Assembly (NCBI GenBank): GCA_031082155.1 | Contig: JAVHLL010000006.1 | Location: 952 to 64,951, forward strand | Reading direction: 5' to 3' | From: Thermodesulfovibrionales bacterium | GTDB lineage: Bacteria > Nitrospirota > Thermodesulfovibrionia > Thermodesulfovibrionales > SM23-35 | Length of the DNA: 64,000 nt | Shown here: one piece after another, positions 41,159-60,603 of the stretch | Position numbering within the stretch: position 1 is the stretch's first letter | Layout of the letters: each line of letters opens with the position of its first letter | Made by a program: the position numbers and the translations under genes | Notes under the pieces: generated by a model | Seen by the model: the letters and a program-made list of their open reading frames with translations, nothing else | Database searches by the model: none | Told to the model about the DNA's origin: nothing

Positions 41159-41265
41159 ATTACTTTAGGGTCCTCTTCAGTGCAAATCAGGCAAGTTCGC
41201 AAATATGTCCCTTCTTGTGCACATATTTTAACCATTTTATGATTAATATATAATCGGTTTAATCG

Positions 41266-43625: not shown

Positions 43626-43883
43626 ATTGCTGACTCTTTCAGCATCTGAGTCCTCGAAAGCTTTCATGCTATCTTCCAGGTCTTTCATAAATAAAGGATC
43701 CTGTGATGCTTCGGCCATCCGTTTGCGAAGCTTTTCTTTTTCAATCTTTTTTGAATATTCTTCCAATGCTTCTTTGACGCCTGCATTTAAAGAAGGAATG
43801 TCCTGGTTCTTTGCATATTCCTTTAATCTTTCGAGTAGCTCTACAGGCAAAGAAAACGTTGCATTTTTTACATTAGTTGCCAT
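43581..43883 (-). CDS. ribbon-helix-helix (CopG-like) antitoxin-type protein, 3' end probably altered
   Basis: ATFSLPVELLERLKEYAKNQDIPSLNAGVKEALEEY is an RHH motif. The tail ...RVSNPLCLRHVPPLKTHP reads antisense through the AbiEii remnant. No toxin partner lies downstream. Confidence 0.55.
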   Translation of the reverse strand: MATNVKNATFSLPVELLERLKEYAKNQDIPSLNAGVKEALEEYSKKIEKEKLRKRMAEASQDPLFMKDLEDSMKAFEDSDAERVSNPLCLRHVPPLKTHP

Positions 43884-43993
43884 ACAATCACCCCCTCTTT
43901 ATATGTTTATTGTATTATTAATATTGTGCATTTCACAATAAATAAAGACATATTTTGCTTTGATAAGAGTCCTTAAATCGTTATTGCAGTGAC

Positions 43994-44821: not shown

Positions 44822-44928
44822 TGTATGATTATAGAACTTTTGAATCCTTATGCCGTAGTGCTTGAACGGGTTTTGATGCCGGCACACAGGGGATTTGATT
44901 GCCAAAAAAGATAAACATGTCCTTCTCA

Positions 44929-45573
44929 TTATCGAATGTTTGTTATCAGATAGTAGAGAATGATAGTCAATATAACCGCAGCAATCCATCTTTTTCGAGT
45001 GCTTCTAAACTTATACGGATTGTTCAGAGCAATTTTGTGTGGAGCCACTTTGGGTATTCTGGGGACATATACGTCCGTGCTATTCCATTCCTCCAATAAT
45101 CTCGCTTTGGGTCTGTCAACGGAATCACCCAGGGAAAAGGGATAATTCTCCGCCTTGATTTTGTAAGATCTTGTCACATTCCTCATGTTGCCGTCTGTAC
45201 TTACCAGGATTACTCGCCCAATACCTTCTTCCTTGAGCTTTATTGCGGTTCCAACGATCCTGTTGTCAGCGCTGCTGGCGAGATCATCAATGACATGATA
45301 CTGATTGTATATCCTCACGATGGATCCAGCGGAAGTCCTGGCCCCGGTCGATATGTCCTGATAACTTCCCAGCATATCAAGAGTTCTTGTCACCTGCCTT
45401 GCCGCTTTCGCCCTGTGCTCATCCGGATCAGGATGTTTCTTCAACCCGTCAAGTTCTTTGAGAACAGCGGTGGGTATGACGATCTCATTGCCCCCCAGTT
45501 TAAAGAGGACATCCGGATCTTCTATTAACACGCTGGTATCAATCACAAAGATCTTCTTCCTTACATCATCCAA
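44929..45573 (-). CDS. PIN-domain protein (PhoH/YlaK N-terminal type) with a C-terminal membrane anchor
   Basis: KIFVIDTSVLIEDPDVLFKLGGNEIVIPTAVLKELDGLKK...NRIVGTAI...VILVSTDGNMR. The C-terminus has a hydrophobic WIAAVILTIILYYLI helix. Confidence 0.7.
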   Translation of the reverse strand: MDDVRKKIFVIDTSVLIEDPDVLFKLGGNEIVIPTAVLKELDGLKKHPDPDEHRAKAARQVTRTLDMLGSYQDISTGARTSAGSIVRIYNQYHVIDDLASSADNRIVGTAIKLKEEGIGRVILVSTDGNMRNVTRSYKIKAENYPFSLGDSVDRPKARLLEEWNSTDVYVPRIPKVAPHKIALNNPYKFRSTRKRWIAAVILTIILYYLITNIR

Positions 45574-45769
45574 TATGCTATCTCTCCTTTCTTGGTTATT
45601 TTTAGTGATATCATATAAACTTTTAAAGATAATTTAATATCATTAAGAAGTAATTATAGCATTTTGTGATCATTTGTCAAGTCATTTTATGCTATTATTT
45701 GATTAAGAAATTGATGTTTTTTTCTTCAGGTGATAATATGTATACATTTAAAGACAGGCGGGGTGAACC

Positions 45770-46000
45770 ATGTTGATCGTAAACCTCAAAGCTCTCATAG
45801 AACGGAAAAGCGCTGTAGAAAGAAGGAAGATTACCTATAAAGTAATCGAGCAGGAAACCGGCGTTAAGGCTTTAACCTTATCCAGGATCGCAACCAATCA
45901 CGACTACAACGTCAGCCGGAAGGACCTTGAAAAACTTCTACTCTTTTTCAACTGCCAGCCTAATGATCTACTGACGTTGATCAAAGAGAAAGAAAAATGA
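45770..46000 (+). CDS. small HTH (Cro/C1-type) transcriptional regulator
   Basis: 76 aa. ITYKVIEQETGVKALTLSRIATN...DLEKLLLFFNCQPNDLL. Confidence 0.65.
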   Translation: MLIVNLKALIERKSAVERRKITYKVIEQETGVKALTLSRIATNHDYNVSRKDLEKLLLFFNCQPNDLLTLIKEKEK

Positions 46001-46060
46001 GGACAATGAAAGCACTGATTCCTGTTGAAGTGATTGAAAAGGTTACACTCCTTGACTTTT

Positions 46061-46116
46061 GTTTCACTATAATATATAGTTTCACCATATGGTGAAACAG
46101 TCTTATAAAGTGAAAC
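46061..46116 (+). promoter_or_regulatory. nested inverted-repeat operator: GTTTCAC-n11-GTTTCAC-n6-GTGAAAC-n11-GTGAAAC
   Basis: Half-sites at 46061-67, 46079-85, 46092-98 and 46110-16. The central CATATG contains the ATG (46089) of the downstream gene. The geometry matches 39218-39270. Confidence 0.6.
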
Positions 46117-47171
46117 AGTTTATCGAGAAAGATCTGCTTAAGAGAGCAAAGAACAGTATAACGTCTGTTATTTCAGATATCACCTTCCTTGCACTAAAGG
46201 ACTTTAAAACCAATGCCAGAACCAACAATAAAGAAGTCGATTTTGTATTAAGCACCCTTATTTCCGGAAAGCCTGCAAAATTTATTGTAGAAGTTAAATC
46301 ACAAGGCGAGCCTCGTCTTGTAAGAATGGCAATTGCTCAGCTTAAAGATTATCTTAAGGGCTTTAAAGACTCCTATGGCATACTTGTCGCTCCCTATCTA
46401 AGTGACGCCAGCAGGCAGATATGCAAAGAGGCCGGCATAGGTTGCGTTGATCTGGCAGGTAACGCATTTCTATCCTTCAAGAATGTATTTATAGACAGGA
46501 GTGGCAGGCCCAATCCTTTCGCTGCTACCCGTCTATTAAAATCTGTCTTCTCACCAAAATCAAGCAGGATACTGAGGGTGCTTCTCTCTGCCCCATCAAA
46601 AAAATGGCATGTCGAAGACTTATCTAAAGAAGCAGGTATCAGCATAGGGCTGGCCTCAAGGGTGAAACAGGCGCTTCTTTCTGAAGAATGGATAAAGGAA
46701 GAAAACAAGAGTTTCTATCTTGTCAAACCTGAAGAAGTGCTTAACCAGTGGGTCAATAATTATTCCTATGAAAAGAATCAGAGCTTTTCATTCTATTCAG
46801 GTCTTACAGAAGACCAGATTGAGACAGCAATCAAACAAGAGTGTGAAAAAAGGAAATATCGTTACGGGCTCTCATTATTTTCAGGAGCAAGAAAAGTAGC
46901 GCCGTTTGTAAGATTCATGCGGTTCTTTTCCTATATTGATGGTAACATTGAAAATATTGCAAAAGCCCTACAACTGAAAAAAGTAGAGACCGGAGCAAAT
47001 CTAACGCTTCTTCAGCCATATGATGAAGGTATCTTCTATGGTCTTCAGGATATTAACGGTATTAATGTTGTATCTGACATCCAGCTTTATCTTGATCTGA
47101 AGAATTATAAAGGAAGAGGCGAGGAAGCAGCACAGGCCATATTTGAACAAAGGATTAAGACCAAATGTTGA
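46089..47171 (+). CDS. AbiEi-like DNA-binding protein with an N-terminal PD-(D/E)xK-like domain (paralogous architecture to 39271-40329)
   Basis: 360 aa. EVDFVL...FIVEVKSQG, then the shared block GIGCVDLAGNAF (compare GIEFIDTAGNAF), a wHTH (WHVEDLSKEAGISIGLASRVKQALLSEEWI) and LNQWVNNY (compare FQRWVTAY). Confidence 0.5.
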   Translation: MVKQSYKVKQFIEKDLLKRAKNSITSVISDITFLALKDFKTNARTNNKEVDFVLSTLISGKPAKFIVEVKSQGEPRLVRMAIAQLKDYLKGFKDSYGILVAPYLSDASRQICKEAGIGCVDLAGNAFLSFKNVFIDRSGRPNPFAATRLLKSVFSPKSSRILRVLLSAPSKKWHVEDLSKEAGISIGLASRVKQALLSEEWIKEENKSFYLVKPEEVLNQWVNNYSYEKNQSFSFYSGLTEDQIETAIKQECEKRKYRYGLSLFSGARKVAPFVRFMRFFSYIDGNIENIAKALQLKKVETGANLTLLQPYDEGIFYGLQDINGINVVSDIQLYLDLKNYKGRGEEAAQAIFEQRIKTKC

Positions 47172-47229
47172 TAATGGGTTTTATAATAGTGGGGAAACAG
47201 GATCAAGCGACATATGGAGAGCAGCAATC

Positions 47230-48273
47230 ATGATGACTTTAAAACAATTCTCGATCAAGCCTGAAACCGTACCAAGCATAACGTCGTGGTATCTGTCAGA
47301 CCTCGGCGAAGCTCGCGGGAGACAAGAGCTTTTCACAAAGCAATCTCCTCAGAAGCTAAAGGTTCTTAGGGAACATGCGTTGATAGAAAGCGCCGTATCA
47401 TCAAACCGCATAGAAGGTGTGACTGTCGCTGATGCGCGTATCCGTACTATCGTGTTCGGCAAGTCGCATCTGCGCGACCGCGATGAGGAAGAAGTGCGAG
47501 GGTATCGCAATGCGTTAAAGCTCATTCACGAGCAGGCAGCAAAACTGCCGGTATCGGAGGAGACGATCCTGAATCTGCACAGACTGGCGAAAGGTGACAT
47601 CTGGGATGCCGGTAAATACAAGGAGAAAGAAAGCGACATCATTGAGAAATACCCTGACGGGACTTCGCGTGTGCGATTCAGAACGGTTTCCCCTGCCAAG
47701 ACGCCGGTATTTGTGGCCGAGCTGATTGACCTATGGAATCAATGTCTTCGCGAACGATGGGTGCAACCGATAGTTGCTATGGCAGCGTTTAATCTCGATT
47801 TTCTCTCTATCCATCCCTTCCGTGATGGAAATGGTCGAGTTTCAAGGCTGCTTCTGCTGCTTCAATGCTATCACCTTGGTTATGATGCAGGCCGTTACAT
47901 CAGCATTGAGCGGATTATTGAACAAAGCAAGGATCGGTATTATGAGACTCTTGAACAAAGTTCACAGGACTGGCATGAGGGGAAACATGACCCGTGGCCA
48001 TATATAAACTACGTTCTATACACACTCAAGACTGCTTACAAGGAATTCGAAGAGCGGGTCGGGCAGTTGCGGTCGCCAAAAGGAGCCAAGACGGAGATCA
48101 TTAGGTCTGCAATAGAAAAGACTCTTAGGCCGTTTCGAATCGCTGATATTCAAAAAGAATGCCCCAGCGTGAGTGTAGATTTGATCCGTCAGATCTTGAA
48201 AAAACTGCGTGACGAGGGAAAGGTCGAGTGTCTCGGAAGGGGTCAAAGCGCACAGTGGCAGAAAAGGAAATAG
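47230..48273 (+). CDS. Fic-family protein (AMPylase-type) with a Fic_N inhibitory-helix motif and a C-terminal wHTH
   Basis: Catalytic HPFRDGNGRVSRLL. N-terminal SSNRIEG ([ST]xxxE[GN]). The ATG at 47230 is preceded by GGAGAG; the ORF-track start at 47143 overlaps the upstream gene. Confidence 0.85.
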   Translation: MMTLKQFSIKPETVPSITSWYLSDLGEARGRQELFTKQSPQKLKVLREHALIESAVSSNRIEGVTVADARIRTIVFGKSHLRDRDEEEVRGYRNALKLIHEQAAKLPVSEETILNLHRLAKGDIWDAGKYKEKESDIIEKYPDGTSRVRFRTVSPAKTPVFVAELIDLWNQCLRERWVQPIVAMAAFNLDFLSIHPFRDGNGRVSRLLLLLQCYHLGYDAGRYISIERIIEQSKDRYYETLEQSSQDWHEGKHDPWPYINYVLYTLKTAYKEFEERVGQLRSPKGAKTEIIRSAIEKTLRPFRIADIQKECPSVSVDLIRQILKKLRDEGKVECLGRGQSAQWQKRK

Positions 48274-48464: not shown

Positions 48465-51400
48465 GTGCATGATGATTTGACCTTCTTCACGAATGAACCG
48501 GGCGCTACCATCCTTGACAGATTCAGGAAAACCCTGAAAGATGTCCAATTCTTTGATATACTCGTCGGCTATTTCCGAACAAGCGGCTTTTTCCGTCTCT
48601 ACAAATCCTTTGAAACAATAGATAAGATCAGAGTCCTTGTCGGCATAAATATCGATAAGACAGCATTTGAAATAATCGAGTCCTCAAAATCACGGGGAAA
48701 GCTTGATTTCGAATCTCACAAACGGACAAAGGAAGTATTCTCCGACGACCTTGCTTATGAAATGGAACATTCTGAGGACACTTATGATACTGAAATAGGG
48801 GTAAAAAAGTTCATTGAATTTTTACAGTCAGGAAAACTCGAAATCAAAGCCTATCCAAGCTCAAAAATCCATGCAAAGGTTTACATAATCCGGTTTTCTG
48901 AAGAAGACCGTGATTACGGGAGAGTGATTACCGGTTCCAGCAATTTTTCAGAAGCCGGCCTTATTGAAAACCTTGAATTCAATGTTGAACTGAAAAATAG
49001 CGCTGATGTTAAGTATGCCCTCGACAAGTTTGAAGCTTTATGGAAAGATGCTGTTGATATCTCCAAGGAATATGTCGAGACGATAAATGCGAGAACCTGG
49101 CTGAATGATTATATCACCCCATATGAGCTTTATCTGAAATTTCTTTATGAATATCTCAAGGAAGATATCAATATAGATGAGGATTTTGAGAGTTATCTCC
49201 CCGAAGGTTTCCTTGATATGAAATACCAGAAGCAGGCTGTGGTTTCAGCAAAAAAGATACTCGATGCCTATAACGGAGTATTTCTCTCCGATGTCGTCGG
49301 ATTGGGCAAAACATATATTTCAGCGCTTCTCGCGCAACAGCTTCCTGGGAAAATTCTTGTTATCTGCCCTCCCGTTCTTGAGGATTACTGGCATGATACT
49401 TTTTTTGAGTTTGGGATAAGAGGCTACAAAGTTGAATCTCTGGGCAAGCTCGACCATATCATAAAAAGCGGAGCGGAACGATTTGATTATATATTTGTCG
49501 ATGAAGCTCATAGGTTCAGAAATGAAGTGACCCTTGGATATGAAAAACTCCATCAGGTTTGTTTTGGCAAGAAGGTGATCCTCGTTTCGGCAACACCCTT
49601 AAATAACACTATTGACGACATTTACAGCCAATTAAAGCTCTTTCAGGTGCCAAAGAAAAGCACAATCCCCGGCGTCCAAAATCTGGAGAAATTCTTTGGG
49701 TCATTAAAGAAGAGAATAAACAAATATCAGAAAAATCAGCCCGAATATATCGATACAATAAAGCTTGTCTCAAAGGAAGTGAGAGACAAAATCCTCAAAT
49801 TTGTTATGGTCCGAAGGACACGCACAGAGGTTATGAAATACTTCAGTGAAGATATGGAGAAACAGAATGTCTCTTTCCCTGAACTGGACGATCCAAAACG
49901 TATTATCTATACCTTTGACGAGAAGACCGGCGATGTTTTCAACAGAACTATTGCCCTTTTGAAGGATTTCTCCTACTCCAGATATACCCCTTTGCTCTAT
50001 CTAAAGACGCCGGTTTCCGAGTTTGAACTCCAGTCTCAACGGAATATCGGAGGATTCATGAAGGGCATCCTTGTGAAACGACTGGAGAGTAGTTTCCACG
50101 CCTTTAAGAACACCCTTAGACGCTTTGTCGATTCTTACCGGAAATTTATCGAAATGTATCAGCAGGGAACTGTTTACATCAGCAAGAAGGTGAATGTTTA
50201 TGATTTTCTTGATGCTGACAATGAAGAAGAGCTATTGAAGCTTGTGGATCTGGACAGGGTTCAGAAATACGAATCCTCTGAGTTCAAAGAAGAATTTCTT
50301 CGTAACCTTCAGAAAGACCTCACTTTACTTGAAAACATTCAAAAACTATGGAGCGATATAGACTCAGATCCGAAGCTCGAACAATTTATTAATGAGCTGA
50401 AAGAGAATCTCATCTTGAAAGAGAACAAGCTTGTTGTCTTTACAGAATCCAAAGAAACCGGTGAATATCTCTTTAAAAAACTAAACAAGCATCTGCCTTC
50501 AAAGGTTCTTTTCTACTCCAGTGTGGGCGGAATTTATGGAGATGATGAGAAGAGCATACCGGTTGCCCGGAACCTGATTAAGGAAAACTTCGACCCGAAG
50601 AACAAACCGCAGAAAGATGATATCAATATACTGATTGCGACAGATATCCTTGCTGAAGGGATTAATCTGCACCGTTCAAATACGGTCATTAACTACGATC
50701 TCCCGTGGAATCCCACTCGTGTATTGCAGCGGGTAGGCAGGGTAAACCGTGTAGGGACTAAGCACAAAGTGATAAATATCTTCAACTTCTTCCCGACTGC
50801 CCAGTCAGACATGCACCTTGGGTTGGAAGCAAACATAAAAGCCAAGATACAGGCATTCCACGACACTCTCGGGGAAGATTCAAGGTATCTTACCGAAGAA
50901 GAAGAAGTCTCCACTCATGAATTATTTGGCGATTTTATTTATAAGAGATTAAGTGACAAGAAAACGTTTCAGGGGGAAGATGAAGAAGAGCGATCGGAGC
51001 TTGAGTATCTTCAGCTTCTTCGGAATATCCGGGATAAGCACCCTTCCTTATTCAAAAAAATAAAACGTCTTCCCAAAAAGGCCCGAACATGCCGGGAGCT
51101 TGAAAACAACAAGAAAGATAATCTGATTACTTTTTTCAGAAAGGGGAAGCTGAAAAAGTTCTTCCTTGCGGATTCCTCTGCTTCGCGCGAACTAACATTT
51201 TTTGAGGCTGTTGATCTTTTCAAATGTGATTCTGCAACCCCTAAAGCGGCCTTCCCTAAAACCTTTTATCCATTCCTTGATGCGAACAAAGCCGCATTTG
51301 ATCAGGCAACGTCCGACGAGACCGCTGAAAAAGATCATCGAGCCAGTAGTTCGAACGAAAGTTATATCATAAAGCGGCTTAAAGCGAAGGATTTGCAGAA

Positions 51401-51662
51401 ATTTTCGGGCTTTACTGAAGAAGATGAAGAGTTTATAAGGTCAGTCTTGAAGGCCTTTGAAAACGGAGTAGTCCCTAAAAATACCAGCAAACGTCTCAAA
51501 AATGAACTCGAAAAAGAAATTGCTCCTCTTAAAGTGCTTGCCATACTGAAAAAGAATCTCCCCCCGACCATTTTGTCTGTGTCACCCTCCACCCAGAAAA
51601 TCGGACATGACAGAAGAGAAGTGATTCTCTCTGAATATCTGTTGAGAATTGGATTAAAATAA
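48465..51662 (+). CDS. PLD (HKD) nuclease domain fused to an SNF2-family helicase
   Basis: 1065 aa with a GTG start. The HKD motif is KIHAKVYII...TGSSNFSEAGL. Helicase motifs: GLGKT, FVDEAHRFRN, SATPLNN, and ATDILAEGINLH...NYDLPWNPTRVLQRVGRVNRVG. Confidence 0.85.
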   Translation: MHDDLTFFTNEPGATILDRFRKTLKDVQFFDILVGYFRTSGFFRLYKSFETIDKIRVLVGINIDKTAFEIIESSKSRGKLDFESHKRTKEVFSDDLAYEMEHSEDTYDTEIGVKKFIEFLQSGKLEIKAYPSSKIHAKVYIIRFSEEDRDYGRVITGSSNFSEAGLIENLEFNVELKNSADVKYALDKFEALWKDAVDISKEYVETINARTWLNDYITPYELYLKFLYEYLKEDINIDEDFESYLPEGFLDMKYQKQAVVSAKKILDAYNGVFLSDVVGLGKTYISALLAQQLPGKILVICPPVLEDYWHDTFFEFGIRGYKVESLGKLDHIIKSGAERFDYIFVDEAHRFRNEVTLGYEKLHQVCFGKKVILVSATPLNNTIDDIYSQLKLFQVPKKSTIPGVQNLEKFFGSLKKRINKYQKNQPEYIDTIKLVSKEVRDKILKFVMVRRTRTEVMKYFSEDMEKQNVSFPELDDPKRIIYTFDEKTGDVFNRTIALLKDFSYSRYTPLLYLKTPVSEFELQSQRNIGGFMKGILVKRLESSFHAFKNTLRRFVDSYRKFIEMYQQGTVYISKKVNVYDFLDADNEEELLKLVDLDRVQKYESSEFKEEFLRNLQKDLTLLENIQKLWSDIDSDPKLEQFINELKENLILKENKLVVFTESKETGEYLFKKLNKHLPSKVLFYSSVGGIYGDDEKSIPVARNLIKENFDPKNKPQKDDINILIATDILAEGINLHRSNTVINYDLPWNPTRVLQRVGRVNRVGTKHKVINIFNFFPTAQSDMHLGLEANIKAKIQAFHDTLGEDSRYLTEEEEVSTHELFGDFIYKRLSDKKTFQGEDEEERSELEYLQLLRNIRDKHPSLFKKIKRLPKKARTCRELENNKKDNLITFFRKGKLKKFFLADSSASRELTFFEAVDLFKCDSATPKAAFPKTFYPFLDANKAAFDQATSDETAEKDHRASSSNESYIIKRLKAKDLQKFSGFTEEDEEFIRSVLKAFENGVVPKNTSKRLKNELEKEIAPLKVLAILKKNLPPTILSVSPSTQKIGHDRREVILSEYLLRIGLK

Positions 51663-51746
51663 TTCCGTCTCATATATTGACAAAAGCATCTTTATAATGT
51701 ATTCTTTTAGCATAATCTAATTTGAATAATGCAATGGGAGTAGTAA

Positions 51747-52865
51747 ATGCGAAATCCATTTACATTAGGCATAGCTCAGAAAAATGATTTTTGCAACAGA
51801 AAAAAAGAAATAAACGACCTGTTACAGCATGCAAAAAATGGTGATAATACAGTTCTGTTTTCGCCCAGAAGATACGGCAAATCTTCTCTGATAGCAAGGA
51901 TTATCGAACAACTCAGGGAAGAAGGATATCTGACTGTTTATGTGGATCTCTACCCGATAACCTCGGAGCAGGATTTCATTTCAAGGTTTTCCAACGGCAT
52001 TTTTAAAGGGATTGGGCGCGGCGCGGATACCCGTACTATTGCGGACAGGCTCAAAAATATCTTCAGCAGACTTGTCCCGAGTCTTGAGGTTAGGCCTGAG
52101 GGGTATAATATCTCCGCCAGATTTGACCGTACTTCCCAAACAGGGTTGCTGCTTGATGACCTTTTAGACGGACTGTATAAATATGTAAAGAAAGAAAAGC
52201 TCCGGGCATGTATTGCCCTCGACGAATTTCAGGAGATTACCGAACTGCCTGATTCCAAAAAAATAGAGGGCATACTACGCTCGCAAATACAGTTCCACAA
52301 AGAGATATCATATTTTTATATTGGGAGCAGACGCCGGATACTGACGGATATGTTTACCGACAAAAACAGGGCTTTCTACAAGAGCGCGTTTTCATATACG
52401 TTGAAGGAAATAGCCAGGGATGAATTTGTTCCCTTCATAGAGGCAAAATTCAGGAAAACGGGAAAGGTTTGCCCATCGGAGGTGGCAGCAAAAATATACG
52501 ATACCGTCAGAGGCTACCCATATTATGTTCAGAAGCTTTCTTCTATAGCATGGGATATTACGATAAGAAAATGCACTGATGAAATAGTATTTGAATCCTA
52601 TACTCTTCTCCTCACTATGGAAAAGACGGATTTTGAAGGCATATGGGGAGGTCTGGCCCTGATACAGAAATCGGTTTTGAAGGCAATAGCCAAAGAACCG
52701 ACAACATCTCCTTACTCCAGAGAATTTCTCGAAAGACATCGGCTTTCAATAGGCGGCACCCAAAAAGCAATGGACGTCTTACTCTCAAGAGACCTCATAG
52801 AAAAAGATGATGAAGGCAAATACAGGTTGACAGACCCTGTAATGGAGGCGTGGCTTCGGGAGTAA
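51747..52865 (+). CDS. AAA ATPase (archaeal-ATPase/DUF234-like family)
   Basis: 372 aa. FCNRKKEINDL, Walker A SPRRYGKSSL, Walker B CIALDEFQE, and a C-terminal wHTH-like domain. Confidence 0.75.
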   Translation: MRNPFTLGIAQKNDFCNRKKEINDLLQHAKNGDNTVLFSPRRYGKSSLIARIIEQLREEGYLTVYVDLYPITSEQDFISRFSNGIFKGIGRGADTRTIADRLKNIFSRLVPSLEVRPEGYNISARFDRTSQTGLLLDDLLDGLYKYVKKEKLRACIALDEFQEITELPDSKKIEGILRSQIQFHKEISYFYIGSRRRILTDMFTDKNRAFYKSAFSYTLKEIARDEFVPFIEAKFRKTGKVCPSEVAAKIYDTVRGYPYYVQKLSSIAWDITIRKCTDEIVFESYTLLLTMEKTDFEGIWGGLALIQKSVLKAIAKEPTTSPYSREFLERHRLSIGGTQKAMDVLLSRDLIEKDDEGKYRLTDPVMEAWLRE

Positions 52866-52874
52866 CGTAACCAT

Positions 52875-55800
52875 ATGGATAGACAAGAAGCAGTCAGATT
52901 AATTGAAGAAACCTTTAATAAACCATTTGATGAATGGCAGTTCCGGTATTTTGTAAAGAATCTGCTGAATGAAATTGACGAATCGAAGTCATTGGAAATC
53001 CACGGCGCTTACATTAAAAACGCATTTTCAGATTGTATCAGGCAGTATAAACGAATCGGAACATTCACAGACTCTGAAGGGTTAAAGTTGGATGTTCTGA
53101 TTGTGAACCTCAAGAGGGGCATCTCAGTCGAAAGAGCAAGGACCACTCAAAGGAATTTCGTAGCCCACCATCTGAAACAAAGGGATAACAAAGATGCAGC
53201 TTTAGTCGCTTTTTATTCCGATGGATCGGAAGACTGGCGATTTTCTTTTGTCCACATGGATTACAGGACAATCCAGACAGAAAGCGGCAAGGTAAAAGTT
53301 GAGGAAGAACTCACTCCTGCGAGAAGATACTCTTTTCTGGTCGGTGAGAACGAGCCAAATCATACAGCCCGGCAACAACTTGTCCCCATTCTTGAAGATG
53401 ACAGGAATAATCCGACCCTTGCAGATATCGAACATGCCTTTAACATCGAGTCTGTAACCAAAGAATTTTTCAACAGGTATAAAGACCTTTTCCTGAAAGT
53501 GAAAGAGGAGCTGGATACTGTAGTAGTCGTTGATCAAAAAATAAAAACGGAATTCGAGAGCAAGCAAATTGACACTGCAAACTTTGCCAAAAAGCTCCTC
53601 GGCCAGATCGTTTTCCTCTATTTCATTCAGAAAAAGGGCTGGCTGGGTGTCGGTAAAGACAGGACATGGGGTACCGGACCGAGAAACTTCTTACGAAGGC
53701 TTTTTGAGAAAGAGATCGTCAGCTATGACAATTTCTTCAATGATATCCTCGAACCTCTGTTCTACGAAGCACTTGCAATAGACAGAGGGGAAATATCATT
53801 TTACAGCCGGTTCAACTGCAAAATCCCGTTTCTGAACGGCGGCTTGTTCGAACCGATTAATGGTTACAACTGGGAGGAGACGGATATTCTCCTTAAGAAC
53901 GAGACCGTCAGAGAGATCCTCGATACCTTTGACCTTTACAATTTTACCGTCCGGGAGGACGAACCGCTTGAAAGAGAAGTGGCTGTTGACCCTGAAATGC
54001 TCGGAAAGGTTTTTGAGAACCTGCTTGAGGTCAAAGACCGCAAGTCAAAAGGCACCTATTATACCCCTCGCGAGATTGTCCACTACATGTGCCAGGAAAG
54101 CCTCATCAATTATCTGGACACTACTATCAATACTCAGGAAGAGACTGTAATTCCTCAAAAACCTGTTCAGAAAAGTCTTATAGGAGAAGATAAGCCGGAA
54201 CAGGCATCACTTACCGTTCAGACACATAAGGTGGTAATCCCTCGTGAAGACATTGAAGCCTTTATCAGGAGAGGCGATTTTGCAATAAACAATGATCTTG
54301 CGAAAGAACAAGGGACAAAATCATATACCTACAAAATGCCCGAGAGTATACGGAACAATGCGCGGCTCTTTGATGACAAGCTAACAGATATAAAAATCTG
54401 TGACCCTGCCATTGGGTCAGGGGCATTCCCCGTCGGTATGATGCATGAGATTGTTCGGGCAAGAGAAACATTAACAACTTATATTAATGAGGGCAGAAGT
54501 AGAACCGCCTATAATTTCAAACGCCATGCTATCCAAGAGTCGATCTATGGCGTCGACATTGACCCCGGTGCTGTAGATATAGCAAAACTCCGCCTTTGGC
54601 TCTCCCTTGTCGTTGATGAAGATGACTTCAAAACCATCAAGCCTTTGCCTAATCTTGATTATAAGATCGTCTGCGGAGATTCTCTTTCGAGTGTAAATAC
54701 TTTGTTCCATCACATCGAACTCAAGAAGCTTGAGAGGCTCAAAGCGAAATACTTTGAGGAGACCAGACCCAGAGAAAAGACACATATAAAAGAAGAAATT
54801 GATAATCTCATAAGCGAGATTACGAATAATGATAAGCATTTCGACTTTAAAGTCTATTTCAGCGAAGTTTTTCATAAAAATGGTGGATTCGACATTGTGC
54901 TCGCAAATCCTCCATACATACGTCACGAAACTATCAGGGAGTTGAAACCTGAGCTAAAGAAGGAATTCGGCGATTTCTTTTGCGGCACGGCAGACATCTA
55001 TACTTATTTCTACAAGAAGGGAATCGAACTGCTAAAGCCATACGGTCACCTTTGCTTTATCGCGCCAAACAAATTTATGCGGGCCGGCTACGGCAAGAAT
55101 ACTCGAAAATTGCTTGCTACACAGGTAACGCCGAAGGTGATCATCGATTTCTGCGATCTCCCGATATTTGATGCAACGACATATCCGTCAATTATCCTTG
55201 TTGAGAAAACGCCTTTTGTAGGGGCGGCCCTATGTGGCCGCCCTGATTTGATTAATCAACAACCACCAAAAGAAGGGCAACCACACAGGGTTGCCCCTAC
55301 AAAAACGGAATTTCTTGCCGCAACATTTACCGACGCCGCCCAATTGGAACGGCTGGAAGAAACCCTATCAAACATTGGATTTCCAATACCAATCTCTTCA
55401 TTGAGAGAAGAAGGCTGGAATCTTGAGCGGCCTGAGATTTTAGCGTTGATGGAAAAACTGCGCAAAGCCGGAACGCCGCTTGATGAGTATGTGCAGGGAC
55501 GGTTTTATCGGGGCATATTGACAGGTCTTAATGAGGCTTTTGTAATTGATGAAGTTACTCGGAAAAACCTTATTTCAGAAGACCCTAAAAGCGAAGAACT
55601 TATCAAGTCGTGGTTAAGAGGAAGGGATATTAAGAAATGGAAGGCTGAATGGGCAGGATTGTATTTGATAAATATTCCAAGTAGTGCAAATCATCACTGG
55701 CAATGGTCAGATGAAAAAACTGAGGGAAAGGCGAAAAAAATATTTTCCCGAACTTATCCCGCCATCCATAAACACCTGTCGCAGTGGGAAGACAGGCTTG

Positions 55801-56264
55801 TCAAGCGCGATGACCAAGGGAAATTTTGGTGGGAATTAAGGTCATGTGCTTATTACAAAGAATTCGAGCAGCCGAAGATTGTTTATCCCAATATTACAAA
55901 AACAAACATCTTTTCTTTCGATACAACCGGCATCCTGACCAATCAGAAATGTTTTATTATCCCCACCGATGACCTCTGTCTTTTGGCAATTCTCAATTCC
56001 AGTCTTGGGATGCAATGGTTCGTTTCAACACTTCCCTTGCTGAGGGGCAGCTTTTTTGAACCGAGTGCCATTTTTATGCAACATTTTCCTATTGCCTCCG
56101 CCTCCGACAAGCAGAAAGCCCCCATTATCGAGCGCGTTCAGACCATCCTTGCCAATCCCGACAGCCCGGATGTCCCTCGCCTCGAAGCGGAGATAAATAA
56201 ATTGGTCAACGATCTTTACAACCTCACGCTGGAGGAGATTGCGATTGTGGAGGGGAAAAGATAA
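52875..56264 (+). CDS. Eco57I/PglX-like N6-adenine DNA methyltransferase (type IIG/IIL-like, 1129 aa)
   Basis: Motif I ICDPAIGSGAFP and motif IV VLANPPYIRHE. The C-terminal half is target-recognition-like. I could not recognise a nuclease motif in the N-terminal ~380 aa. Confidence 0.85.
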   Translation: MDRQEAVRLIEETFNKPFDEWQFRYFVKNLLNEIDESKSLEIHGAYIKNAFSDCIRQYKRIGTFTDSEGLKLDVLIVNLKRGISVERARTTQRNFVAHHLKQRDNKDAALVAFYSDGSEDWRFSFVHMDYRTIQTESGKVKVEEELTPARRYSFLVGENEPNHTARQQLVPILEDDRNNPTLADIEHAFNIESVTKEFFNRYKDLFLKVKEELDTVVVVDQKIKTEFESKQIDTANFAKKLLGQIVFLYFIQKKGWLGVGKDRTWGTGPRNFLRRLFEKEIVSYDNFFNDILEPLFYEALAIDRGEISFYSRFNCKIPFLNGGLFEPINGYNWEETDILLKNETVREILDTFDLYNFTVREDEPLEREVAVDPEMLGKVFENLLEVKDRKSKGTYYTPREIVHYMCQESLINYLDTTINTQEETVIPQKPVQKSLIGEDKPEQASLTVQTHKVVIPREDIEAFIRRGDFAINNDLAKEQGTKSYTYKMPESIRNNARLFDDKLTDIKICDPAIGSGAFPVGMMHEIVRARETLTTYINEGRSRTAYNFKRHAIQESIYGVDIDPGAVDIAKLRLWLSLVVDEDDFKTIKPLPNLDYKIVCGDSLSSVNTLFHHIELKKLERLKAKYFEETRPREKTHIKEEIDNLISEITNNDKHFDFKVYFSEVFHKNGGFDIVLANPPYIRHETIRELKPELKKEFGDFFCGTADIYTYFYKKGIELLKPYGHLCFIAPNKFMRAGYGKNTRKLLATQVTPKVIIDFCDLPIFDATTYPSIILVEKTPFVGAALCGRPDLINQQPPKEGQPHRVAPTKTEFLAATFTDAAQLERLEETLSNIGFPIPISSLREEGWNLERPEILALMEKLRKAGTPLDEYVQGRFYRGILTGLNEAFVIDEVTRKNLISEDPKSEELIKSWLRGRDIKKWKAEWAGLYLINIPSSANHHWQWSDEKTEGKAKKIFSRTYPAIHKHLSQWEDRLVKRDDQGKFWWELRSCAYYKEFEQPKIVYPNITKTNIFSFDTTGILTNQKCFIIPTDDLCLLAILNSSLGMQWFVSTLPLLRGSFFEPSAIFMQHFPIASASDKQKAPIIERVQTILANPDSPDVPRLEAEINKLVNDLYNLTLEEIAIVEGKR
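55218..55301 (+). repeat. in-frame palindromic element (28 codons) inside the methyltransferase gene
   Basis: The outer pair gtagggg (55218-24) / cccctac (55294-300) encloses two hairpins: gggcggcc/ggccgccc (55222-29/55236-43) and gggcaacc/ggttgccc (55275-82/55289-96). It translates as VGAALCGRPDLINQQPPKEGQPHRVAPT. Confidence 0.6.
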
Positions 56265-56327: not shown

Positions 56328-57278
56328 ATGACAACTAATAGATGGACTGGATGGGCTGGATATGTTCAGGGAACTAATCGCGGGAAAGCCTTTGTTCACA
56401 TCAAAATATCAAATGCGACTTTAATCGGTGATTTTGTCTTTAAAGATATTGCATATGGAACAGCGGCTGCCAAAATTAAGGGGAGACTCAACAATAGCCA
56501 AATTACAGCCGACCTCTTTGATTTTGTTTTTGCCAAGCCTCTGCCGTTAGAGCCACAGGCAGGTCAAATATCGATGACCATCTCAGAAGATGGTAGTGAA
56601 CTCTCTGGAGCATGGGCTACGGATATTGGAACTCATGGTCAATGTCATCTTTTTAAAATTAACTTTTTTAGGGCATTACCTATATTTTCACCGCTTTTAT
56701 ATCGAACATTTCTTTTTATAAAACGTGGGCTTATTGCAAATTTAAAGTACCTTTATTTAGTTTTCTCGCTTCTTGTGATGATTACTTCAGCAACAGGTGT
56801 TTTAAAAGAGAAAATTGGCCTAACAGAGACTATTATATTAATAATTCCATTGATATTTCTTTTTCAAAATGAGATCAGGAATTTTTTCATTATTACGGGC
56901 TTAAAAAAAATAGGGCCCGTTGAATTTCAAGAACAAACAGCTACCCCCGTTGGAATAAATCAAGAAGTTATAAGTAGACTTGTTCAGGAATATGCACAAC
57001 TATTCCCTTTTTTCGTTTACTTAAATCAATTTTTTGTACCACGTACAAAGGCGCTTTTACGTATACTCGCAGCTGCACCTTCAATCACACGAGGAACTTT
57101 CAATCAATATGCGCGTGTTTTAGGAATCGAAGAAAGTAATATTCAGGTAACCTATGACGTTCTTGAGTTAAATCAGTGCTTGCAAGTAGACCCAAATGGG
57201 CTTATTAGTGTTACTGAAATTGGGCAGAGGTTTCTCGAATTTGAAAGTCGCTTCAATCAACTTTTTCCTTCAAGATGA
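56328..57278 (+). CDS. hypothetical membrane protein
   Basis: 316 aa with a GGAGG RBS. A soluble N-terminal ~110 aa, three to four TM helices (about residues 115-190), and a C-terminal ~120-aa soluble domain. No family recognised. The sequence is AT-rich. Confidence 0.5.
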   Translation: MTTNRWTGWAGYVQGTNRGKAFVHIKISNATLIGDFVFKDIAYGTAAAKIKGRLNNSQITADLFDFVFAKPLPLEPQAGQISMTISEDGSELSGAWATDIGTHGQCHLFKINFFRALPIFSPLLYRTFLFIKRGLIANLKYLYLVFSLLVMITSATGVLKEKIGLTETIILIIPLIFLFQNEIRNFFIITGLKKIGPVEFQEQTATPVGINQEVISRLVQEYAQLFPFFVYLNQFFVPRTKALLRILAAAPSITRGTFNQYARVLGIEESNIQVTYDVLELNQCLQVDPNGLISVTEIGQRFLEFESRFNQLFPSR

Positions 57279-57306
57279 ACGAAAGAGAAACCCAAACCTG
57301 GAAAGA

Positions 57307-57392
57307 GGACAGGTACATTTTCTGAAGGGGGAAAGAGTGATAGAAACGACGAAAATGGAACTCGATCAAATCGGGGTCTAGCTTGAAATACA
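57307..57392 (+). pseudogene. duplicated 5' region and first codons of tcmP (decayed copy)
   Basis: ggacaggtAcattttct...ATGgaactcgatcaaatcggggtcTAG (MELDQIGV*) compares with ggacaggtGcattttct...ATGaaacttgatcaaataggcttctgg (MKLDQIGFW...) at 58573-58660. Confidence 0.55.
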
Positions 57393-57473
57393 AATGATTC
57401 GCGAGAGGCGCTTCCGCGCGCTGGCGAAGATTGAAAAAGATACCATCTTAAATTTATTCAAGAGGCGACATCA

Positions 57474-58559
57474 ATGAGGGAAGCTTTTGACTTACGGGTA
57501 AGAAAGGATCGAGAAGCTCTGGCAAAATTTCTTCCAACTATAGACAACTATACTTTCACTATTTCACGAAGAGATTTTATTGAGGCGCTGTCTTCCCTAT
57601 CATTATTCTTAAGAGAGCCTGAATGGTTGATATACCAGTATGGAACTCTTGGACCTATACCCGCAGGGAAGTCAAAGTTGGTTTTTTCGATCTCCCGTGC
57701 TTGCGAGTTGGGTATATGGCTTAGAGATTTATCCAGATTTAGAGATTTTGATAAACTTACAGCCGGTTTTTCGAATCCTACGCAATTCGAAGACAGTTGT
57801 TTTGAGACAAAAGTCGCTCACTGGTTTTCAACCCTGCCAGCTATCAGAGATATTATGTTCTCTCCTTCTTATCTGGTGAACGGGAAAATAAAAAATCCAG
57901 ATTTCGATGTGAATGGTATTTGCGGAAGTTTAACTGTTGAATGTAAACGACCACATCATTATGTTCAGCAGGCATTTCAGAAGTTTAATAATGCTGTCGC
58001 AGAATTCCAAGCTGCGATGAAGAAAAGACAATGGCCTGATCATTTGCGTTTGGAAATCGAGATGATTGGCAATATTAGAGAATCGCTGCAAACACTAACT
58101 CAAAATACAATTGACATAGCTCTAAAAACCTCTAAGAAATGGATAAAACGATTCTCTTATAAAGATACTGTTCGTGGTTTTGTTGTAAAGCGTAACTCGT
58201 TGTTCCGCCTTACCAATGTGAAAGTCCACACAGATATAATGATAATCGGAGATAAAGCCACGGGATTACTTAACCCAGAATTCACATTACTGCGGGTTGG
58301 TACGAATCGATTAGACGCTCTGCAGAGGAAATCTATTGGTTCACGAATAGCTGATGCACTTCACCAACTTCCTAAGGATCGTAATTGCATTATTTTTGTT
58401 GGAGGAGTCCCATATCGTATAACTGAACCGGCTTGTAAGGATAGGCTGTCAGATAAGGCATATTCACACGTCAGAGCATTTGGCGCATGGGACGATGAGT
58501 TAAAGTTTGTATATAGGAGACGTGACAGAGCGTTCATACGCTCTCTTTTTGGAATATAA
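57474..58559 (+). CDS. hypothetical protein with a PD-(D/E)xK nuclease-like motif
   Basis: 361 aa. KNPDFDVNGICGSLTVECKRP fits PD...(D/E)xK. No family recognised. Confidence 0.45.
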   Translation: MREAFDLRVRKDREALAKFLPTIDNYTFTISRRDFIEALSSLSLFLREPEWLIYQYGTLGPIPAGKSKLVFSISRACELGIWLRDLSRFRDFDKLTAGFSNPTQFEDSCFETKVAHWFSTLPAIRDIMFSPSYLVNGKIKNPDFDVNGICGSLTVECKRPHHYVQQAFQKFNNAVAEFQAAMKKRQWPDHLRLEIEMIGNIRESLQTLTQNTIDIALKTSKKWIKRFSYKDTVRGFVVKRNSLFRLTNVKVHTDIMIIGDKATGLLNPEFTLLRVGTNRLDALQRKSIGSRIADALHQLPKDRNCIIFVGGVPYRITEPACKDRLSDKAYSHVRAFGAWDDELKFVYRRRDRAFIRSLFGI

Positions 58560-58630
58560 TGCAGAAAAAAGTGGACAGGTGCATTTTCTCTATGCAATGA
58601 GTAAAGGGAATAGATTGTTAGAGGGATGAG

Positions 58631-59455
58631 ATGAAACTTGATCAAATAGGCTTCTGGTCTGAAATAAAGCTTGAGATAATCAAGAAATACGCTGGCGCAT
58701 ATACGAGCATTATGAAAAATCAGTCATGGTGCAAGGGGTATGTATACATTGATGCATTTGCTGGAGCCGGCAAGCACATCAGTAGGCAAACTGGGGAAAT
58801 GGTTCCTGGATCGCCGTTAAATGCCCTTGAGGTTAAGCCTCCTTTTACAGAATATTTTTTCATCGATCTTGCCGAAGAAAGAGCAGATGTTTTTATTGAA
58901 CTTGCCAGGGAGAATCCTAATATCCATTCTTACCATGGTGACTGCAACGAAGTCCTTATTAACGATATCTTTCCCAATCTTGGATGGGACACGTTTAAAA
59001 GAGCATTATGTATTCTTGATCCGTATGGGTTACATCTTAAATGGGAAACAATAAAGAAAGCTGCTGAGTTAAAGACAGTAGATATCTTTATCAACTTTCC
59101 AATAATGGATATCAATCGGAATGTACTATTTGATGATTTCGCTAAAGCTGCACCTGAAAATATTGCAAGAATGAACGCTTTTTGGGGTGATGCAAGCTGG
59201 AAGGAATTGTTGTATAAAGAACAGGATACCCTTTTTGGTGATAAACAACACATTAAGCTTGAAGGATATCCTACTCTTGCAAAAGAGTTCGGGGAAAGAG
59301 TTAAAAATATAGGTTTCAAGAGTGTGCCGGAGCCGATCCTGATGAGAAATGTAAAGAACGGTCCTCTTTATTATCTGTATTTTGCATCTCAAAAGGATGT
59401 TGCTAAGGACATCAGCAAAGATATTTTTAATAGATATAAAAAAGGCCAAAAATGA
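58631..59455 (+). CDS. tcmP: three-Cys-motif partner protein TcmP-like (methyltransferase-fold candidate)
   Basis: 274 aa. FWSEIKLEIIKKY...YVYIDAFAGAGKH...GSPLNAL...ILDPYG matches my recollection of the TcmP family (TIGR04474). Confidence 0.7.
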   Translation: MKLDQIGFWSEIKLEIIKKYAGAYTSIMKNQSWCKGYVYIDAFAGAGKHISRQTGEMVPGSPLNALEVKPPFTEYFFIDLAEERADVFIELARENPNIHSYHGDCNEVLINDIFPNLGWDTFKRALCILDPYGLHLKWETIKKAAELKTVDIFINFPIMDINRNVLFDDFAKAAPENIARMNAFWGDASWKELLYKEQDTLFGDKQHIKLEGYPTLAKEFGERVKNIGFKSVPEPILMRNVKNGPLYYLYFASQKDVAKDISKDIFNRYKKGQK

Positions 59456-60603
59456 AAAAGACTAATCTCTATAACGATAATCATCCAATGTTAGATATGA
59501 AGACCGGGGAGCAGGTGATTAAATATGGTCAAGAACCCAAGCCACAACCTCTTGTCTCCGAACTTTGGGCAATTCGGGGACATTGTGATGAGTTAAGAGC
59601 CCAGAAAATATCCAAAAGAGCAAATTTGCCTCTTCAGTGGTTCGACAAAATACCATCTCTGAACAGAACAAAAGGGATAGAGAAGCTCAGGGCTGAACGA
59701 GGGGTGCTTTTATTAAGAAACCGGACAAGTGCTTTTATAGATCAGTTCCAACATCCTATCGGCAGATGTTCCAAATTCTACAAGTTAACTGCTTACAACA
59801 ACTGTAATTTCTGGTGTGAGTATTGTTATCTGTACCTAACATTTAGAAATATGCCCATATCCACGCATTTCGTAAATTATGACAAGATGTTCCGCGAAAT
59901 AATCAGCTTTGACAAAGCGAATATTCCAGACATGCTAAGAGTTTTGAATCTCGGTGAACTTTGCGACCCCTTGGCAGTTGAAGATATAACAGGGTTTGCT
60001 GAAGAACTCATCCCATTTGCTGCACAGGAAACTTACAAGACAAAGCTGCTCTTCCTTACAAAAAGTGACAATGTAGATTCTTTATTGAATATAGAACATG
60101 GGGGTCGGTCGATAATGTCTTTCAGTATCAATACTGATAAGGTTTACCAGCAACTTGAACATAGAACCGCTTCTCCAGAGGCAAGATTAATAGCAGCGAA
60201 GAAACTGCAGCAAGCCGGGTATGAGATACGCTTGAGGATAGATCCTGTTATCCTTTATTCAACATGGAAAAAAGATTATATCGATCTTGTTGAAAAAATA
60301 TTTGTATTTGTTAAACCCGAACGGATTACCATAGGAGAATATCGTCCCTCAAAAGGCCTTGCTTCACACATCAGCTCTCGCTTTCCTTATTCTCCTCTCC
60401 TCAAGATTAATTCCGGATTAGTTAACGATGGACCAAAACTAAGATATCCTGAAGAACACCGCCTGGCAATGTTCAGAGTTATTGTCGATGCGATAAAGAA
60501 ACATGACAAGAAAATTAAAATCGCCCTCTGCAAAGAGGATGTCAAAATTTGGAAAAACCTTGACATGCAAATTAATGGATTACAATGTAACTGTCTCGGT
60601 TAG
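59452..60603 (+). CDS. radical SAM protein (SplB/DNA-photolyase-like, COG1533-type)
   Basis: 383 aa. AYNNCNFWCEYCYLY carries CxxxCxxC. The ATG overlaps the tcmP stop (ATGA), so the two are translationally coupled. Confidence 0.75.
   Translation: MKKTNLYNDNHPMLDMKTGEQVIKYGQEPKPQPLVSELWAIRGHCDELRAQKISKRANLPLQWFDKIPSLNRTKGIEKLRAERGVLLLRNRTSAFIDQFQHPIGRCSKFYKLTAYNNCNFWCEYCYLYLTFRNMPISTHFVNYDKMFREIISFDKANIPDMLRVLNLGELCDPLAVEDITGFAEELIPFAAQETYKTKLLFLTKSDNVDSLLNIEHGGRSIMSFSINTDKVYQQLEHRTASPEARLIAAKKLQQAGYEIRLRIDPVILYSTWKKDYIDLVEKIFVFVKPERITIGEYRPSKGLASHISSRFPYSPLLKINSGLVNDGPKLRYPEEHRLAMFRVIVDAIKKHDKKIKIALCKEDVKIWKNLDMQINGLQCNCLG

Follow-up and report, generated by a model that had tools for sequence, protein, structure and literature searches.

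A conserved gene pair for a PLD–SNF2 helicase and a type IIG-like adenine methylase, with a slot for embedded cargo, as a probable ATP-dependent restriction–modification system

Which genes of a restriction–modification (RM)-like locus in a Thermodesulfovibrionales bacterium form its functional unit, and what kind of system do they encode? The locus lies in a 64,000-nucleotide stretch of contig JAVHLL010000006.1 (assembly GCA_031082155.1, positions 952 to 64,951 of the forward strand), which we call the window. It comprises three co-directional open reading frames (ORFs) for a helicase-nuclease, an ATPase and a methylase, separated by gaps of 84 nt (gene 1/gene 2) and 9 nt (gene 2/gene 3). A sequence-only reading had described them as a compact, uncharacterised trio; the ORF list and Pfam bear out its coordinates, gaps, domains and motifs. 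Our results point to a smaller unit, probably a two-gene operon (48465 to 51662 plus 52875 to 56264) that acts as an ATP-dependent RM system, type III/ISP-like but split over two polypeptides. The three genes are:

48465 to 51662, + strand: gene 1, core gene 1 of the pair, 1065 aa, GTG start; phospholipase D (PLD, HKD motif) nuclease fused to an SNF2 translocase, predicted ATP-dependent restriction subunit (Pfam, PADLOC, synteny)
51747 to 52865, + strand: gene 2, 372 aa; AAA+ ATPase of the ATPase_2 family (PF01637; Pfam E 1.6e-12), very probably an embedded cargo gene and not a core component
52875 to 56264, + strand: gene 3, core gene 2 of the pair, 1129 aa; type IIG-like N6-adenine methyltransferase with target-recognition domain (TRD), predicted modification and specificity subunit (Pfam, PADLOC)

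The helicase and the methylase are inherited as a pair

Linkage was followed in two scans, each comprising its best 80 matches, with closer relatives favoured. For the genome scan, an alignment of 30 methylase homologues (A1) was run against one genome per GTDB species, followed by tblastn with the window proteins. For the metagenome scan, the helicase alignment (A3) was run against metagenome contigs, and the methylase N-terminal domain (N-domain) was then sought downstream. Of 73 informative genome loci, 70 have the PLD–SNF2 helicase gene directly upstream of the methylase and on its strand; of 77 informative metagenome loci, 76 have the methylase N-domain directly downstream of the helicase. 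The gap between the two is typically 2–30 nt (median ~10–15 nt), a spacing that suggests co-transcription, possibly with translational coupling. Helicase and methylase are separate ORFs here and in all ~146 related loci, and the top 150 representative proteins include no fusion of the N-domain to the helicase. This linkage is directly observed, as are the motif conservation and TRD variability described below.

The genome scan placed the pair in more than 15 phyla, with a patchy spread: Nitrospirota, Desulfobacterota, Chloroflexota, Bacteroidota, Spirochaetota, Cyanobacteria, Patescibacteria, Bdellovibrionota, Planctomycetota, Deinococcota, Chlorobiota, Verrucomicrobiota, Acidobacteriota, Thermotogota and Alpha-/Gammaproteobacteria. 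The nearest relatives come from Nitrospirota and Thermodesulfovibrionales metagenome-assembled genomes. In a plasmid collection, the first 372 aa of the methylase found only 18 weak matches, and the family is therefore mostly chromosomal in that data set.

The gene between them is interchangeable

The sequence-only reading had counted the ATPase as a third component and had held that a failure of the three genes to co-occur in other genomes would speak against the trio. Conservation across genomes divides the three: the outer two genes are conserved together and the ATPase is not, being absent from ~145 of 148 related loci that keep the pair. It occurs only in loci L001/L002 and L084, which share with the window 93% identity in the ATPase, 92–93% in the helicase and 81% in the methylase (84% over the N-terminal 372 aa of the L084 methylase). 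Homologues of the ATPase at 60–70% identity are solitary genes beside toxin–antitoxin (TA) modules, transposases or unrelated genes. Its description as a DUF234-type protein was right only in a loose sense: the protein belongs to ATPase_2, but the Pfam DUF234 model gave no match at E<=0.01. A PDB sequence search with it returned nothing at E<=1, and it matched PADLOC model PDC-S01 weakly (8.6e-5).

The position that the ATPase occupies recurs as a slot. Of 70 genome loci, 27 have a helicase–methylase gap of 0.4–1.7 kb, as do 10 of the 76 metagenome loci, and nearly all of these gaps contain a + strand gene. The slot is empty in ~74% of loci and elsewhere holds at least 10 unrelated gene families:

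AlbA_2/HATPase_c_4: 8 loci
RhuM/Fic: 4 loci
ORF6N: 2 loci
Bro-N: 2 loci
NYN: 2 loci
DUF1016/YhcG: 1 locus
Abi_2: 1 locus
DUF3800: 1 locus
IS200-type transposase: 1 locus
ATPase_2: this window

Upstream of the ATPase gene, the 84-nt gap contains one further feature:

51677 to 51705, + strand: promoter-like site TTGACA-17-TATTCT, matching 10 of 12 consensus positions

Promoter-like sites are not enriched in the region overall (15 found vs 18.4 expected), and this one is only suggestive. Embedded genes are common in multi-gene modification-based systems, where 96.7% are oriented as the host system (10.1101/2024.01.29.577857). Because the ATPase is restricted to near-identical relatives, the slot holds unrelated genes elsewhere and the homologues are solitary, the trio resolves into a pair plus a passenger. 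We conclude that the pair is very probably the unit and the ATPase its cargo; the ATPase_2 gene may have a defence or regulatory role of its own.

Gene 1 joins a single-HKD nuclease to an SNF2 motor

Gene 1 belongs to a large family, with more than 7,900 homologues at E<=1e-10, and its GTG start is consistent with the N-termini of homologues. It divides into three regions:

48513 to 49064, + strand: PLD-family nuclease domain at the N-terminus, with one HKD motif, ~aa 17–200 (Pfam PLDc_2 and RE_NgoFVII; PADLOC PbeA models over aa 18–318)
49212 to 50864, + strand: SNF2/SF2 (superfamily 2) ATPase core, ~aa 250–800 (Pfam, motifs, PDB sequence and Foldseek matches)
50865 to 51659, + strand: conserved C-terminal region, ~aa 801–1065 (~260 aa; tblastn), candidate methylase interface

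Pfam identified PLDc_2 (aa 105–193, E 2.3e-9), RE_NgoFVII (aa 103–182), SNF2-rel_dom (E 1.8e-11) and Helicase_C (E 2.6e-17), with a weak and partial ResIII match (33 bits, aa 333–378 only). The top PADLOC model was 'HKD+Snf2' (PDLC01075, E 1.5e-60). The PLD domain carries H136-A-K138 (HxK), G157-S-S-N160 and E171, one copy per chain, in agreement with the single-copy HxK ... GSxN signature of the Nuc/BfiI/SauUSI type. The motor carries Walker A (G279-LGKT283), DEAH (346–349) and motif VI (Q755-R-x-G-R759). All of these, from the HKD, GSSN and E171 to the three motor motifs, are invariant in alignment A3, which contains 25 sequences with 61–94% identity to the window protein.

PDB sequence matches to the core were Chd1, ISWI and RapA. 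Foldseek with a low-confidence model of the helicase (full-length AlphaFold2 [AF2] pLDDT 58.9, pTM 0.34) retrieved SNF2 remodellers, SauUSI (7clg; chain 7clg_B at rank 3, with 876 columns aligned), ZorD and RapA, and serves as a coarse architecture check only. Tblastn alignments extend through aa ~1060 in nearly all loci. The region ~aa 801–1065 has no Pfam match and low AF2 confidence, and is no more than a candidate interface with the methylase. The helicase is much better conserved than the methylase (best database matches 94–98% vs only 81% identity), a contrast that fits quicker turnover or recombination of the specificity subunit.

Gene 3 has the layout of a type IIG enzyme and no recognisable nuclease

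The methylase matched Pfam families Eco57I (E 7.6e-44), N6_Mtase, MmeI_Mtase and TaqI_C (aa 913–1073), and the REBASE-derived PADLOC model REase_MTase_IIG (PDLC03596) covered aa 1–776 with E 1.8e-288 and 958 bits. Its parts are:

52875 to 53399, + strand: family-specific N-terminal alpha/beta domain, aa 1–175, in the nuclease position of type IIG enzymes (AF2, alignment)
53412 to 53984, + strand: helical spacer domain, aa ~180–370, with mostly helical secondary structure and the FAKKLLGQIVFLYF(I/L)QKKGW motif
53985 to 55214, + strand: gamma-class N6-adenine methyltransferase core (Pfam, motifs, CamA alignment)
55214 to 55304, + strand: in-frame 91-nt palindromic insertion at the core/TRD junction (inverted repeat I1), encoding ~aa 781–808 (PFVGAALCGRPDLINQQPPKEGQPHRVAP)
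55302 to 56261, + strand: C-terminal TaqI_C-like target-recognition region (Pfam TaqI_C), hypervariable in relatives

Motif X (GTYYTP) lies at aa ~393–398. The two motifs already pointed out in the sequence-only reading, DPAIGSGAFP (motif I) and NPPY (motif IV), were found at aa 510–519 and 678–681 and are invariant in the 30-sequence alignment A1. The enzyme is gamma-class because its motifs follow the order X–I–IV and its TaqI_C TRD is C-terminal. The closest solved structure is the CamA methyltransferase, which aligns from aa ~369 on. The locus is RM-like, as had been proposed.

In type IIG enzymes the N-domain position belongs to the nuclease. Here, the homologue alignment of the first 372 aa shows no conserved D...(D/E)xK, PD-(D/E)XK, HNH or GIY motif; these residues have no Pfam match, and searches at E<=10 with 13 homologous N-termini gave noise only. 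An AF2 model of aa 1–372 (pLDDT 72) found no Foldseek match in PDB below E 0.02, with TM scores <=0.19. The AF2 model of the N-domain has a pLDDT of ~75–94 over aa 1–130 and the order helix, three strands, helix, strand. Its invariant residues are D73, L75, L79, R89, R93 and N94; position 78 is variable and K80 is unconserved. A closer look at the first 380 aa, suggested by the sequence-only reading, was taken over aa 1–372 with AF2, Foldseek and Pfam and yielded neither a fold nor a family, and its view that the methylase shows no nuclease motif, leaving the HKD on the SNF2 protein as the sole evident nuclease, agrees with alignment, Pfam and Foldseek alike.

A profile built on the first 372 aa, which comprise the N-domain and the helical spacer, matched 1,139 clusters at 50% identity (E<=1e-30). 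Among the 150 clusters listed, nearly all matches begin at residue 1–10, mostly in proteins of ~1000–1340 aa; some of the listed proteins are shorter and probably truncated. The FAKKLLGQIVFLYF(I/L)QKKGW block of the spacer is invariant in the 30-sequence alignment, and other PADLOC type IIG models (PDLC03628) align to the spacer at model positions ~150–365.

The C-terminal region behaves differently from the rest of the pair. Among the 44 metagenome loci with enough downstream sequence, the TRD was detectable in 23, at 25–58% identity, compared with a mean identity of 54% for the helicase and N-domain in metagenome loci, and many genome loci align to the methylase only as far as aa ~776. Such hypervariability is expected of a diversifying specificity element. 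The 91-nt insertion in front of the TRD has terminal 36-nt arms that are 81% complementary, each arm a GC-rich hairpin. It is absent from most homologues; P0073 and P0089 have different insertions at the same site, and the window contains no second copy of the GC-rich hairpin insertion. It resembles a miniature inverted-repeat transposable element (MITE) or a repetitive extragenic palindromic (REP) element tolerated in a linker.

In Prevotella nigrescens (NZ_CP082843.1, record 379870–390856; L169), the same pair is annotated 'helicase-related protein' and 'N-6 DNA methylase'. After it, on the opposite strand, a gene for an ATP-binding protein lies between two partial 'Eco57I methylase domain' genes. 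This layout suggests silent TRD cassettes for inversion-based specificity switching.

A two-protein model and its alternatives

In the model that we favour, the methylase would use its hypervariable TaqI_C-type TRD to recognise a short DNA motif, and would mark host DNA with N6-methyladenine. At unmethylated sites on incoming DNA it would recruit or license its PLD–SNF2 partner, probably through the family-specific, co-inherited N-domain, which shows no catalytic motif. The SNF2 motor would then move along double-stranded DNA at the expense of ATP, and, as with SauUSI and type I/ISP enzymes, cleavage would follow once two motor-nucleases had dimerised or collided. A PLD active site requires two HKD motifs and each chain supplies one, so two motor-nucleases would be needed for cleavage. 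We regard this specific cleavage mechanism as evenly poised between right and wrong.

Several points weigh against the two-protein model. Methylation, ATP-dependent cleavage, physical interaction of the two proteins and phage restriction are all things that we infer. The samples of best 80 loci are biased toward closer relatives, and in three loci (L032, L065 and L066) a solitary methylase stands among housekeeping genes, showing that it can persist without its partner. The order of elements in the modelled N-domain (aa 20–115) is compatible with a PD-(D/E)XK scaffold or a degenerate restriction endonuclease core, and hence with a cryptic or non-canonical nuclease. The poor AF2 model of the helicase (pLDDT 58.9) makes the structural comparison with SauUSI weak. 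The ATPase could also have been co-opted functionally in this particular locus.

In a rival explanation, helicase-nuclease, ATPase and methylase form one three-component, Hma-like system. In its favour, the genes share one direction and lie close together, the same three are kept in L001/L002 and L084, and the combination of SNF2 helicase, ATPase and methylase does occur in Hma and BR systems (PMC8565338, PMC12839542). Yet the ATPase is missing from ~145 of the 148 pair loci, unrelated genes fill its slot in others, and its homologues are solitary elsewhere; it is, moreover, a 372-aa ATPase_2 protein, not DUF499/BrxC-like, and has its own promoter-like site in the 84-nt gap upstream. We consider a three-component system very unlikely. 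A self-sufficient methylase, that is, a type IIG enzyme with a divergent N-terminal nuclease and the PLD–SNF2 protein as an auxiliary or backup effector, has more in its favour and is still unlikely. The type IIG model of PADLOC spans aa 1–776 (E 1.8e-288), the domain order is that of type IIG enzymes, the order of N-domain elements resembles a PD-(D/E)XK core, the methylase stands alone in 3 of 73 loci, and Cj0031-type IIG enzymes restrict phage unaided (PMC4889913). It is opposed by the lack of a conserved acidic/lysine catalytic signature (position 78 variable, K80 unconserved), by the lack of any Pfam nuclease family or fold match for the N-domain, and by the near-obligatory link to a nuclease-motor with invariant catalytic residues, which argues that the partner supplies cleavage.

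A role outside defence, with the methylase (possibly phase-variable) as an epigenetic regulator and the helicase as a DNA remodelling or repair enzyme, would accommodate the relatives in Bacteroides and Prevotella with invertible TRD cassettes, a feature of phasevarions (PMC9881135), and the non-defence roles of SNF2 proteins such as RapA. Such a role is harder to reconcile with an invariant HKD nuclease motif fused to the motor, a patchy distribution over many phyla, a hypervariable TRD, and a pair that sits in a TA/defence island and carries defence-type cargo (Abi_2, DUF1016, RhuM/Fic, AlbA_2), and we judge it highly improbable.

The pair sits in a toxin–antitoxin and defence island

The locus lies in a bacterial chromosomal TA/defence island, with GidA/MnmG at 25.6 kb. 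The island holds several AbiEi/AbiEii genes, PIN, metallophosphatase, an AbiEi_2–Fic pair and the PADLOC candidates PDC-S01 and PDC-M41; a dense run of toxin–antitoxin and abortive-infection genes spans 39271–48273, upstream of the helicase. The neighbouring features are:

34859 to 36121, − strand: AAA_14 plus DUF4143 ATPase (PADLOC candidate single-gene system PDC-S01, E 2.1e-148)
39271 to 41158: AbiEi_2 and AbiEii
42653 to 43941: AbiEi and a short AbiEii-like ORF
43994 to 45573, − strand: PIN and metallophosphatase
46089 to 48273: AbiEi_2 and Fic, the Fic end 192 nt before the helicase start
56328 to 57278 and 57474 to 58559, + strand: ORFs of 316 and 361 aa, directly after the methylase
58631 to 59455, + strand: TcmP gene (TIGR04474 E 3.1e-61; PADLOC candidate PDC-M41A E 4.7e-67)
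59452 to 60603, + strand: spore-photoproduct-lyase-like (SPL) radical SAM gene, overlapping the TcmP gene by 4 nt

The ORF list confirms that four more + strand ORFs follow the methylase at 56328–60603, as the sequence-only reading had said. They are not conserved with the pair, and TcmP/SPL occur with it in few close relatives only. The first two ORFs were considered as further components and rejected: they have no counterpart by tblastn in ~160 related loci, no NCBIfam or PADLOC match, and no Pfam match at E<=0.1. The TcmP/SPL pair is probably a separate candidate defence module; it was seen near the helicase–methylase system in a few Nitrospirota loci (L001 15497–19552, L020 19838–21807, L091 4684–6656).

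Implications

The pair is most likely a widespread variant of ATP-dependent RM that has a slot for embedded cargo. Should the two-gene model be true, a very common pair that annotation at present calls 'helicase-related protein' plus 'Eco57I/N-6 DNA methylase', or 'type IIG RM', would be a distinct ATP-dependent RM architecture, which defence catalogues and REBASE-style typing would miscount. It would also show how motor-driven systems can arise from single-chain type IIG enzymes, by nuclease loss and hand-off to a PLD–SNF2 partner, and link type IIG to the DrmD–DrmMI module of class 1 DISARM and to the HKD–Snf2 effector of Hma/BR. The recurrent slot between the pair genes adds one more host system in which an embedded position can point to defence genes, and the practical correction at this locus is that the ATPase should not be counted as a system component.

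More tentatively, and somewhat short of probable, the pair may represent a widespread and unnamed class of ATP-dependent RM, in which a type IIG-derived methylase has lost its nuclease and directs a separate PLD–SNF2 motor-nuclease, and in which the gene junction is a conserved docking slot for interchangeable embedded cargo of a defence or regulatory kind, in this window the ATPase_2 gene. The N-terminal 372-aa module alone defines over 1,100 protein clusters (50% identity), which come from more than 15 phyla. Were this so, a formal new RM type and a new site for 'guilt by embedding' discovery of defence genes would follow.

Comparison with known systems

In our literature search we came across no name, classification or test of the PLD–SNF2/methylase pair, in keeping with its earlier description as compact and uncharacterised. 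The adjacency itself has already been noticed in passing (PMC9881135, PMC3417536): a Bacteroides ovatus locus has a 'Cj0031 homologue' with an upstream PLD–SNF coding sequence and programmed inversions of the methylase gene (PMC9881135), and Aravind and colleagues assigned HKD–SWI2/SNF2 fusions to R-M systems (PMC3417536; also PMC2292703). The best-scoring PADLOC label for gene 1, PDLC01075 'C3a139 HKD+Snf2', goes back to a survey of type III CRISPR accessory clusters (PMC6546367) and not to a named defence system, and we rejected it as a classification.

With class 1 DISARM the pair shares its SNF2, PLD and Eco57I-like adenine methylase content. Among PADLOC models of named defence systems, the helicase matched DrmD best (4.9e-40) and the methylase DrmMI (1.8e-40); RM-class and candidate-cluster models such as REase_MTase_IIG and C3a139 scored higher. 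In class 1 DISARM, drmD directly precedes drmMI. The pair differs from class 1 DISARM in that DrmA and DrmB (DUF1998) are absent and that PLD is fused to SNF2 instead of being a separate DrmC. The window contains no DUF1998 protein and no separate DrmA-like gene, the sole DrmA model match being a helicase lobe inside gene 1 (4.4e-20, aa 531–781), and in the L001 and L003 gene tables neither DrmA nor DrmB adjoins the pair. Gene 1 also fell short of the NCBIfam DrmD equivalogs (NF038317, 152.6 bits vs a cut-off of 610; NF038318, 93.8 vs 950).

BREX was rejected on similar grounds. The methylase scored 67, 56 and 46 bits with the NCBIfam BREX-2, BREX-1 and BREX-6 PglX models, vs cut-offs of 400, 500 and 900, and its PADLOC PglX match (2.7e-23) contrasts with 1.8e-288 for the type IIG model. 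No PglZ, BrxC/PglY, BrxA, BrxB, BrxL or BrxH was found among the ORFs at 34.8–63.7 kb or among large ORFs elsewhere; the other window ORFs of >=600 aa are GidA and a 656-aa ORF without a PADLOC match. With PglX and DrmD models below cut-off and PglZ, BrxC, BrxL, DrmA and DrmB all absent, the locus is neither BREX nor DISARM, just as the sequence-only reading had maintained.

Hma/BR type 2 consists of an HKD–Snf2 helicase, a DUF499 ATPase, a DUF1156 N6-methylase and DUF3780 (PMC12839542). Its predicted effector is likewise an N-terminal HKD nuclease on a Swi2/Snf2 helicase, partnered by an adenine methylase (PMC12839542), and it frequently has embedded cargo genes (10.1101/2024.01.29.577857). 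In gene 1, too, the PLD domain (PLDc_2, aa 105–193) precedes the SNF2 core. The DUF499/BrxC-like ATPase, DUF3780 and the DUF1156/PglXI-type methylase are all absent from our locus, however, and the ATPase has no HmaC match. HmaA matches the C-lobe of the helicase only (5.8e-26), and the core here is two genes vs three or four in Hma. We rejected Hma/BR type 2 as the identity of the locus because DUF499, DUF3780 and DUF1156 are all absent.

SauUSI, a PLD–helicase ATP-dependent restriction enzyme (cited in PMC12839542), has the same order, with a single-HKD PLD nuclease at the N-terminus and an SF2 motor behind it, and dimerisation and ATP use would be expected of both. It is a single type IV protein without a cognate methylase, and its target is modified cytosine, whereas the specificity of the pair presumably comes from the separate methylase/TRD protein, with unmodified DNA as the expected target.

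By layout, the methylase is a type IIG family member of the Eco57I/MmeI/Cj0031 kind: a ~170-aa N-domain, a helical spacer, a gamma-class N6-adenine methyltransferase and a C-terminal TRD, with methyltransferase and TRD in one chain of ~1000 aa or longer (PADLOC PDLC03596; Pfam). It departs from type IIG in its N-domain, which has no conserved PD-(D/E)XK signature, Pfam match or fold match, and in the PLD–SNF2 nuclease-motor that nearly always precedes it; classical type IIG enzymes are single-chain and ATP-independent and need no such partner. Classification by curated models, which the sequence-only reading had said would speak against its proposal, needs a qualification: PADLOC has a type IIG model that fits the methylase (E 1.8e-288), but its label ignores the near-obligatory helicase-nuclease partner and the missing nuclease motif. 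Automated tools would probably call the methylase 'RM type IIG', a label that states family membership and omits both.

The pair does not fit type III as defined by Res plus a beta-class Mod. Type III Mod enzymes are generally beta-class, whereas the methylase here is gamma-class and Eco57I-like, with motifs in the order X–I–IV and a C-terminal TRD; the ResIII match of gene 1 is partial (33 bits) and its nuclease is PLD. Nor does it fit type ISP, in which nuclease, helicase, methylase and TRD form one polypeptide, the pair having two chains. In both comparisons the motor differs as well, being SNF2 plus PLD here, where those systems have a Res-type helicase joined to a PD-ExK or Mrr nuclease. 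What the pair would have in common with type III (Mod+Res) and type ISP (LlaGI/LlaBIII) is the arrangement itself, in which a methylase–TRD gives specificity and an SF2 motor-nuclease carries out ATP-dependent restriction.

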